In this document: one piece after another, positions 52,796 to 53,656 of the stretch
How positions within the stretch are numbered: position 1 is the stretch's first letter
Layout of the letters: each line of letters opens with the position of its first letter
DNA from: Escherichia phage Turkey5
Sequence record: PQ471516.1
Reading direction: 5' to 3' (one strand)
Length of the DNA stretch: 64,000 nt
Notes under the pieces: model-generated
Database searches by the model: none
Told to the model about the DNA's origin: nothing
What the model saw: the letters and a program-made list of their open reading frames with translations, nothing else
Translations under genes and position numbers: made by a program

Positions 52796-53656
52796 ATGAA
52801 ACCAATCAGAGTACTGTCACTTTTTAATGGAATGAGTGTGGGATACATGGCACTACAAGATGCTGGTATCCCAGTTGAAACGTATTACTCTTCCGAAATT
52901 GATAAGTATGCTATTGCCGAATCCCAAGAGAATTTCCCTGATATTATCCAACTAGGTGACGTTACCAAGTGGAAGGATTGGGATATTGAATGGGATAAGA
53001 TTGACCTCCTTATGGGAGGGTTTCCATGTCAAGCATGGAGCGTAGCAGGTAAACAAGGCGGTTTAAATGACATTCGTGGACAACTGTTCCTTGTTATGGT
53101 TGATATTTTCGAACACATTAAAAGTCTAAATCCAGACTTGAAAGTACTGTTCGAGAATGTTAAAATGAAAGACGATTTCAAGCAATACATCAACAGTATT
53201 CTTGATATGACACCAGTACTGATAAATTCCCATAATTACACGCCTCACTTCAGGCAACGTTATTATTGGTACAGTTCTGATAAATTACTAACTCCACCTG
53301 CATTAATGAATGCACCTGTGCTTCAGGACATTCTGGATGATGGTTGGTATACTGACCGTACCGCTTCGTACTGTATAGATGCCAACTACTTCAAGGGTGG
53401 TGATTGTAATCAATACTTCAATAAGTCCAGGCGTCAATTGGTGTTCAAGAACCCTGATATCAATCGTCAGTACTTACTTGAGAATGGTAAAAGAAACATT
53501 GACTACCGTCACTTAAGTGTAGTAGAATGTTGTAAATTGCAAGGCGTACCAACTGATTATTTCAAGTTATCTAGTAATACACAGGCATATAAAATGCTAG
53601 GAAACGGTTGGACAATGCCAGTCATTTCACATTTGCTTAAAGAGATATTCTTTTAA
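52796..53656 (+). CDS. DNA (cytosine-5)-methyltransferase, compact form
   Basis: Motif I LSLFNGMSVG, motif IV GGFPCQAWS (catalytic Cys), motif VI ENV, motif VIII QRYYW, C-terminal LGNGWTMPV. Confidence 0.8.
   Translation: MKPIRVLSLFNGMSVGYMALQDAGIPVETYYSSEIDKYAIAESQENFPDIIQLGDVTKWKDWDIEWDKIDLLMGGFPCQAWSVAGKQGGLNDIRGQLFLVMVDIFEHIKSLNPDLKVLFENVKMKDDFKQYINSILDMTPVLINSHNYTPHFRQRYYWYSSDKLLTPPALMNAPVLQDILDDGWYTDRTASYCIDANYFKGGDCNQYFNKSRRQLVFKNPDINRQYLLENGKRNIDYRHLSVVECCKLQGVPTDYFKLSSNTQAYKMLGNGWTMPVISHLLKEIFF

Follow-up and report, generated by a model that had tools for sequence, protein, structure and literature searches.

A compact stand-alone cytosine-5 DNA methyltransferase, probably protective, in an Asteriusvirus of the Rak2-like jumbo coliphages

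The gene described here very probably codes for an orphan, or stand-alone, DNA cytosine-5 methyltransferase that depends on SAM and with which a Rak2-like jumbo coliphage would protect its own DNA, as judged from its sequence and from a predicted structure. It was found in a stretch of 64,000 nucleotides of Escherichia phage Turkey5 (PQ471516.1), referred to below as the window. The source phage is an Asteriusvirus, a Rak2-like jumbo coliphage, and the gene is of an already recognised kind, the orphan phage C5 DNA methyltransferase, being annotated in this way in related genomes. Both the sequence and the model indicate that the 286-aa product is apparently complete and active.

The 286-aa protein matched the Pfam family PF00145 with an E-value of 6.6e-37 (128.1 bits, against a curated cut-off of 22), the NCBIfam model TIGR00675 'dcm' with 117.9 bits (curated cut-off 100.65) and phrog_116 'DNA methyltransferase' with an E-value of 4e-59. 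The window protein was aligned with 40 homologues (41 sequences in total) and also with M.HhaI. The open reading frame and all the catalytic motifs quoted in the sequence-only reading are present as it described them and align to M.HhaI (Table 1). The glycine pattern of motif I reads F10-N-G12...G16 in this alignment, and the SAM-binding acidic residues, E34 and D55, occupy invariant columns. With PF00145 and TIGR00675 matched above their cut-offs, a confident AF2 model and DNMT3 fold matches, the earlier assignment to the C5-cytosine DNA methyltransferases holds. Since the catalytic residues are fully conserved, the standard catalytic mechanism of the family can be expected, in which the target cytosine would be flipped out of the phage DNA, Cys78 would attack C6 and C5 would receive the methyl group from SAM.

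Table 1. Features of the methyltransferase gene and its surroundings (window positions)
Feature	Position	Strand	Remarks
Extended -10 promoter-like element TGTGCTATAAT	52750..52760	+	36 nt upstream of start codon; putative promoter function
Ribosome-binding site AAGGA	52785..52789	+	6 nt before ATG; read from sequence
Methyltransferase CDS	52796..53656	+	ATG start, 286 aa, stop codon included; from ORF list
Motif I, LSLFNGMSVG, aa 7-16, SAM-binding loop	52814..52843	+	F10 and G12 invariant in 41-sequence alignment; equivalent to M.HhaI F18/G20
Motif IV, GGFPCQ, aa 74-79	53015..53032	+	P77 and C78 invariant; aligned to M.HhaI PC motif, Cys81
Catalytic nucleophile Cys78 (codon)	53027-53029	+	within motif IV
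Motif VI, ENV, aa 120-122	53153..53161	+	invariant in family; equivalent to M.HhaI E119-N120-V121
Motif VIII, RQRYYW, aa 153-158	53252..53269	+	R153 and R155 invariant; equivalent to M.HhaI R163/R165
Variable (target-recognition) region, aa 159-237, 79 residues	53270..53506	+	from alignment, between motifs VIII and IX
Motif IX, RHLSVVECCKLQGVP, aa 238-252	53507..53551	+	R238, L240 and E244 invariant; equivalent to M.HhaI RKLHPRECARVMGYP
Motif X, KMLGNGWTMPVI, aa 266-277, including GNGW aa 269-272	53591..53626	+	G269, N270 and G271 invariant; equivalent to M.HhaI GNSV
Asn270	53603-53605	+	equivalent of M.HhaI Asn304
Downstream ORF, 159 aa	53658-54137	+	begins one base past methyltransferase stop; ORF shared only by JNE01

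The AF2 model built from the 41-sequence alignment reached a mean pLDDT of 92.4 and a pTM of 0.90, and the model and its Foldseek matches reveal the two-domain methyltransferase fold. The best 50 matches in the PDB were all catalytic domains of DNMT3A, DNMT3B or DNMT3C, with E-values down to 9e-24, TM scores of 0.74-0.81 and 25-28% identity. By sequence, the best solved relatives are likewise DNMT3A/B, matched over the full length (E = 3e-22), followed by M.HhaI (8e-18) and M.HaeIII. The family profile scored 131 bits for DNMT3B, 126 for DNMT3A, 109 for M.HhaI and 100 for M.HaeIII, with weaker values for DRM2 (70-77), DNMT2 (55-70), M.MpeI (48) and DNMT1 (26).

The target-recognition region had been described as very short, and this was correct only in part: its 79 residues do fall at the short end of the range, but shortness is a trait of the class. 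Both motifs VIII and IX could be located in 109 of the closest 120 database homologues, and in these the region spans from 61 to 220 residues (median 112) and is shorter than 90 in 45. What sets the longer relatives apart is chiefly some 45 residues inserted behind RRQLVF, a conserved segment of the alignment. A conserved core, DR..SYCIDANY.KGG...QYFNKSRRQ, is seen across the 41 aligned sequences, and the variable region contains, as SYCIDANYFKGG, a core like the T(L/V)xA...KGG of DNA enzymes and not the CFT motif of DNMT2. Small size is common to the members of a large clade, which are found mostly on phage and short metagenomic contigs, and is not peculiar to this gene; compactness is also common to the DNMT3 catalytic domain. 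The family gave at least 8000 database matches at E <= 1e-10, and tblastn placed it in 455 phage records (Escherichia, Vibrio, Bacteroides, Bacillus and other hosts), while the 80 homologue loci retrieved were mostly MAG contigs from many phyla, with identities of 50% or less. Such genes have been labelled 'DNMT3A' in KEGG-based virome studies (PMC11309003). The compact DNMT3-like architecture could be of interest to engineers of small C5-methyltransferases.

The window is collinear with, and 97-98% identical to, Escherichia phage vB_EcoM_JNE01 (Asteriusvirus, 355 kb) and about 79% identical to 121Q. At least 24 public contigs encode exactly the same protein and agree with the window in gene order. 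Orthologues with 89-90% identity were found in 121Q (gp91, YP_009101685; 90%), PBECO4, phAPEC6, G17 and others, and orthologues with 74-76% identity in GAP32, CBB (CBB_399-type), XbC2 (XbC2_400) and Erwinia phages. The RaK2 orthologue, 62.6% identical, is placed at 166714-167598 and labelled putative DNA methyltransferase; RaK2 ORF445, also of 286 aa, was considered for this position and rejected, its sequence being unrelated. In these Rak2-like phages the orthologues have 285-294 aa, lie in the same genomic neighbourhood and are annotated as DNA (cytosine) methyltransferase. The Sharanji orthologue bears the label 'HaeIIIM', and the names 'HaeIII' and 'HpaII methylase' found in some orthologue records are automatic labels.

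A separate observation concerns the orthologous genes of JNE01 and A4, which have 629 and 632 codons, respectively, and contain an intein of 343 (JNE01) or 346 (A4) residues. This intein, with Hint and LAGLIDADG domains, is placed exactly between Pro77 and the catalytic Cys78 and reads CFPEGT...VVHN|C. As it is inserted right before the catalytic cysteine, this residue of the JNE01 and A4 enzymes doubles as the +1 splicing nucleophile. The P77|C78 insertion site is empty in the window enzyme, the BLAST alignment of the window with JNE01 breaks at 53027-53029, and the extein just downstream of the site differs between the intein-plus and the intein-minus alleles.

The upstream sequence suggests that the gene has an extended -10 promoter of its own, together with a strong ribosome-binding site. 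The element TGTGNTATAAT lies 35-42 nt upstream of the ATG both here and in the gene at 35463; its 5 occurrences all lie on the + strand, where 0.52 would be expected in all, and the relaxed extended -10 form TGNTATAAT was counted 17 times on the + strand and once on the - strand. A TGcTATAAT core is kept upstream of the 121Q orthologue, and the ribosome-binding context AAAGGATT(T/A)TA(T/G)ATG is kept in JNE01, 121Q and A4. A near-identical ribosome-binding context shared with the gene at 35463 had been pointed out before; the two leaders do share AAAAGGATTTT, found exactly only at 35449 and 52783, but the likeness is not restricted to the ribosome-binding site and extends to a promoter-plus-RBS architecture. 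This extended -10 promoter, of the sigma-70 type without a -35 box, would be read by the host sigma-70 polymerase, probably early in infection.

The window comprises a replication and nucleotide-metabolism region and then a field of small genes. A restriction endonuclease or nuclease domain was searched for with Pfam and PHROGs in the ten ORFs flanking the methyltransferase gene and none was seen; these ORFs gave no convincing Pfam family at all and all of them fall in PHROGs of unknown function, and the six of the ten compared with the PADLOC defence-system models gave no match. The gene immediately downstream is not conserved across the Asteriusvirus clades, as in the 121Q-type phages the nucleotide similarity ends directly after the methyltransferase gene and a different gene is found there. 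The sequence-only reading had noted that no cognate restriction endonuclease was apparent nearby, and this is borne out by these searches. The adjoining gene for a cognate endonuclease that characterizes a type II restriction-modification system was not found among the flanking ORFs; from this sequence survey the enzyme looks like an orphan, with the caveat that novel nucleases can escape profiles.

Inspection of the base composition of short sites showed further features of these genomes. GCGC does not occur in the window, where 31 copies would be expected from a Markov model and 41 from shuffles, and its count is also zero in every Asteriusvirus locus examined, in RaK2 and in XbC2. A relation between this methyltransferase family and the absence of GCGC was considered and rejected, as GCGC reaches 46 copies, against 41 expected, in a phi92-like phage whose enzyme is 50% identical. 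Other depleted sites are GATC (97/264), GGWCC (7/33) and CCGG, and many 6-mer palindromes are depleted or absent. The palindrome CAGTACTG, on the other hand, is over-represented about 28-fold in the window (29 copies, 1.05 expected); AGTACT occurs 140 times, and in the Rak2-like genomes roughly every 460 bp holds one (C)AGTACT(G). No reading phase is free of this palindrome, which lies in non-coding DNA as well, and GTACTG is the favoured spelling of Val-Leu. 121Q, TH47, RaK2 and XbC2 share the enrichment, and the phi92-like phage has no AGTACT. The intein at the catalytic cysteine, the absence of GCGC and the excess of CAGTACTG are more unusual than the methyltransferase gene and merit a follow-up of their own.

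Hints on the sequence methylated come from two relatives. For RaK2 DNA a data-not-shown remark reports a methylated CpG detected by bisulfite at a motif, and cutting only by methylation-insensitive enzymes (PMC3622015). Beyond this remark, no literature on the methylomes of Asteriusvirus or Alcyoneusvirus was found. The second relative, fEgEco12, has an orthologue that is 89% identical to the window enzyme. The sensitivity to 5-methylcytosine of SmaI, ClaI, NruI, SexAI, HindIII, NsiI and SpeI is described in REBASE and NEB data. All of these enzymes cut fEgEco12 DNA as predicted (PMC13070987). Because the sites were cut as predicted, these digests argue against methylation in fEgEco12, if there is any, at general CpG, CCGG, CGCG, T(5mC)GA within ClaI sites, CCWGG, AGCT or GC. 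The two hints on CpG are thus in conflict, with a methylated CpG reported in RaK2 (PMC3622015) and cleavage by SmaI, ClaI and NruI in fEgEco12 (PMC13070987).

GCGC would be no useful target on the phage DNA, because the genome has none. ACGT and TCGA are the sole C-containing 4-mer palindromes with counts near expectation in all four phage groups, and for ACGT this applies to the window, RaK2, XbC2 and the phi92-like phage with the 50%-identical enzyme. These site counts are suggestive only, and ACGT as the target, though compatible with all the hints, is a weak guess that we hold to be rather doubtful. It counts against ACGT that A(5mC) would be a substrate of McrBC; 5-methylcytosine after a purine would expose DNA to McrBC in E. 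coli K-12, on which the relative Sharanji can grow. For GGCC, avoidance is seen in XbC2 (16/41) and in the phi92-like phage (9/37) but not in Asteriusvirus (24/27).

Substitutions between close relatives were also inspected. An excess of C/T differences at CpG and GGC between the window and JNE01, seen when the changes were left unpolarised, was discarded as an artefact, C being rare in the contexts concerned. When the window and JNE01 were compared with polarisation by 121Q, the 97 C>T events showed no context signal of a 5mC-deamination footprint. In three pairs (121Q/IA-38, TH47/EC.P1 and window/JNE01), for each of which the other clades served for polarisation, 193 C>T events were counted, with CpG at 0.46x the average rate, in a set in which the polarisation is biased and codon position confounds the top contexts; the bias is apparent from the inferred T>C and A>G changes, which are in excess by 3:1. 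The substitutions in these three close pairs, underpowered and biased as they are, lend no support to general CpG methylation. Knowledge of the target would permit a prediction of the host restriction systems evaded by Asteriusvirus therapeutic candidates and would explain which sites these phages need not purge.

Several other readings of the gene have to be weighed against a stand-alone DNA methyltransferase. The protein could be the methylase half of a phage restriction-modification system whose nuclease is an unannotated small neighbour, such as the ORF at 53658-54137; this 159-aa ORF is translationally coupled, one base after the methyltransferase stop, restriction enzymes are notoriously hard to spot by sequence, and a genome without GCGC would suit a phage nuclease that cuts host DNA. 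We regard this as highly improbable: a nuclease or restriction endonuclease domain is absent from the ten neighbours by Pfam and PHROGs and from six of them by PADLOC, the downstream ORF is swapped in 121Q-type Asteriusviruses in which the methyltransferase is kept at 90%, and in all relatives the gene sits among paralogous small genes of unknown function. As to the reaction, methylation of RNA, for instance of the phage tRNAs in the manner of DNMT2/TRDMT1, would be in line with the many tRNAs that relatives encode 10-20 kb downstream of the orthologous gene and with the place of DNMT2 in the same superfamily, where it was matched at E = 1e-10. This DNMT2 match, however, reached 45 bits over the N-terminal half only, compared with 82 for DNMT3A (full length) and 68 for M.HhaI, and the family profile gave it 55-70 bits against 126-131 for DNMT3A/B. 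The core SYCIDANYFKGG is of the DNA-enzyme kind and is not the CFT motif of DNMT2. Moreover, 5-methylcytosine has been reported in the DNA of RaK2 (PMC3622015). A tRNA methyltransferase is unlikely from the sequence, and RNA methylation at large seems extremely improbable. The remaining reading of the reaction is a CmoX-type DNA cytosine C5-carboxymethyltransferase, in which the host CmoA would supply carboxy-SAM and the product would be 5-carboxymethylcytosine instead of 5-methylcytosine. CmoX is a phage C5-methyltransferase homologue, and the CmoA of E. coli can supply Cx-SAM (PMC12783734). It is defined by an Arg replacing Asn304 of M.HhaI and by an SPPC motif (PMC12783734), whereas the window enzyme has Asn270 at the first of these positions, as do 115 of the 116 homologues in which the motif was found, and GFPC at the second, the family showing GSPC in 76, GFPC in 42 and GPPC in one. 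SpCmoX (8YF3) was absent when PDB sequences were matched to the protein, and it was not among the best 60 of the 61 PDB matches to the family profile; the chance of such a reaction is close to negligible.

As for its role, an orphan DNA cytosine-5 methyltransferase would, on the preferred reading, place 5-methylcytosine at a short sequence and so shield the phage DNA from those host restriction enzymes that read that sequence. Methylation may in this way complement a second strategy, the purging of many restriction-type palindromes from the phage genome. We infer an anti-restriction or genome-modification function, as proposed in the sequence-only reading, and the same inference has been made for the orthologues (PMC7247149, PMC11895373, PMC5259590). 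The removal of restriction sites by the phage lessens the need for methylation and counts against a protective role. An active DNA C5-methyltransferase with another main role, marking phage DNA for replication, packaging or the timing of transcription or modifying the host DNA, would agree with the many restriction sites already avoided by the phage, with the conservation of the enzyme across Rak2-like genera with different hosts, and with the hugely over-represented palindrome of unknown function in the genome. It is nonetheless unlikely, as the role documented for orphan methyltransferases of phages is anti-restriction (general literature, for example as cited in PMC11309003). More far-reaching is the idea that the enzyme is part of a genome-wide self-marking design of all Rak2-like jumbo phages, which we consider very unlikely even with all its versions taken together. 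A phage-specific motif could be marked for a phage process, or host sites absent from the phage could be modified so as to expose the host chromosome alone to destruction by a methyl-dependent or site-specific nuclease; in a milder version the enzyme could act in a DNMT3-like manner on a subset of CpG (e.g. ACGT), with its compact phage-associated clade as the sister group, among prokaryotes, of the DNMT3 catalytic domain.

Judged by sequence and model, the protein favoured here as a protective orphan enzyme is a canonical DNA C5-methyltransferase, in a compact form that among solved structures is most like the catalytic domain of DNMT3, with the bacterial prototypes not far away. DNMT3A/B (e.g. 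PDB 6W89 and 6KDA) resemble it in size, at about 285 aa, in the LSLF(D/N)G form that motif I takes and in the smallness of the recognition domain, and in the alignment the catalytic domain of DNMT3A begins where the phage protein has its N-terminus. However, the DNMT3 family has PWWP and ADD regulatory domains, whereas the 286-aa enzyme consists of the catalytic domain only; motif X contains an Asn (GNGW) in place of the Arg of DNMT3 (GRSW), and the sequence of the recognition region is unrelated to that of DNMT3A/B. With M.HhaI and M.HaeIII all the landmarks of the ten motifs align (Cys81/Cys78, ENV, RxR and GN), although M.HhaI has about 25 residues more in its variable region and, unlike in the M.HhaI and M.HaeIII systems, a partner endonuclease was not found beside the gene. 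SpCmoX (PDB 8YF3; PMC12783734) is also a phage-encoded C5-methyltransferase homologue, and is used for genome-wide modification. The closest counterparts are the Rak2-like orthologues, which, apart from the intein of JNE01 and A4, show no substantive difference from the window enzyme.

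The MTase gene orthologous to that of the window carries, in JNE01 (the nearest relative) and phage A4, an in-frame LAGLIDADG intein of 343–346 residues. The insertion point in both sister phages lies directly N-terminal to the catalytic cysteine of the PCQ motif (GGFP/CFPEGT...VVHN/CQAWS), so that this residue doubles as the +1 splicing residue. The window allele is intein-free, and the extein sequence immediately downstream of the insertion point is not alike in intein-plus and intein-free alleles. An additional 257-aa ORF, placed between both ribonucleotide reductase subunit genes, is seen in JNE01 and EC.P1, is missing from 121Q and from the corresponding region of the window (16552-16647), gave no match against Pfam and is probably a free-standing mobile element.

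Coordinates of the features (L001 and L003, stretches of JNE01; L002, phage A4; L011, EC.P1)
Feature	Sequence	Position
Intein-bearing MTase gene	JNE01	L001:4799-6688
Intein-bearing MTase gene	A4	L002:3001-4899
Empty intein site	window	53026/53027
Extra 257-aa ORF	JNE01	L003:20617-21390
Extra 257-aa ORF	EC.P1	L011:24559-25332
CAGTACTG example copy, within MTase gene	window	53214-53221
CAGTACTG example copy	window	53761-53768
TGNTATAAT, elements 1-9	window	1020, 5905, 12271, 16597, 18014, 21953, 28653, 30207, 35412
TGNTATAAT, elements 10-17	window	46424, 49945, 51015, 52752, 54135, 57482, 58438, 62413

On either side of the MTase gene there are small ORFs of ~125-154 aa (window 50409-52140 and 54200-55479) with a common C-terminal EE.FFQ(Q/E)S..Q motif. 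Phrog_21500 matches the ORFs at 51238 and 54200 alike, and these flanking ORFs look like paralogues. Matches to the extended -10 consensus TGNTATAAT number 17 on the + (coding) strand of the window and one on the - strand, a set that probably represents the host-polymerase promoters of the phage.

No GCGC site is present in the window, where 31-41 would be expected, nor in any stretch examined of Asteriusvirus, RaK2 (L007) or XbC2 (L097), L003-L011 included; a phi92-like phage has it at a normal level (46 versus 41 expected). This absence could be due either to extreme restriction pressure or to a phage-intrinsic cause, for example a GCGC-specific nuclease. Palindromes are broadly avoided in the window (observed/expected: GATC, 97/264; GGWCC on both strands, 7/33; CCGG, 16/34; CGCG, 14/27), many 6-mers (CAGCTG, CTGCAG, CCATGG, GGTACC) having zero copies versus 7-9 expected, while GGCC, ACGT, TGCA and CCWGG stay close to expectation. 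The 8-bp palindrome CAGTACTG appears 29 times in the whole window versus 1.05 expected, and AGTACT 140 times in its 64 kb, with copies in every reading phase and outside coding sequence; 26 of the 100 Val-Leu pairs are spelled GTACTG. 121Q, TH47, RaK2 and XbC2 show this enrichment too, and AGTACT has no copy in 41 kb of the phi92-like phage.

Some database homologues of the MTase (P0100, P0112) carry a dCMP/cytidine deaminase domain (PF00383) as a fusion. The tblastn match to several other phages (H75, H78 and H79; Proteus Saba, Vibrio 1.132.O and Croceibacter P2559Y) is broken in two pieces, which suggests that the gene harbors further insertions there.
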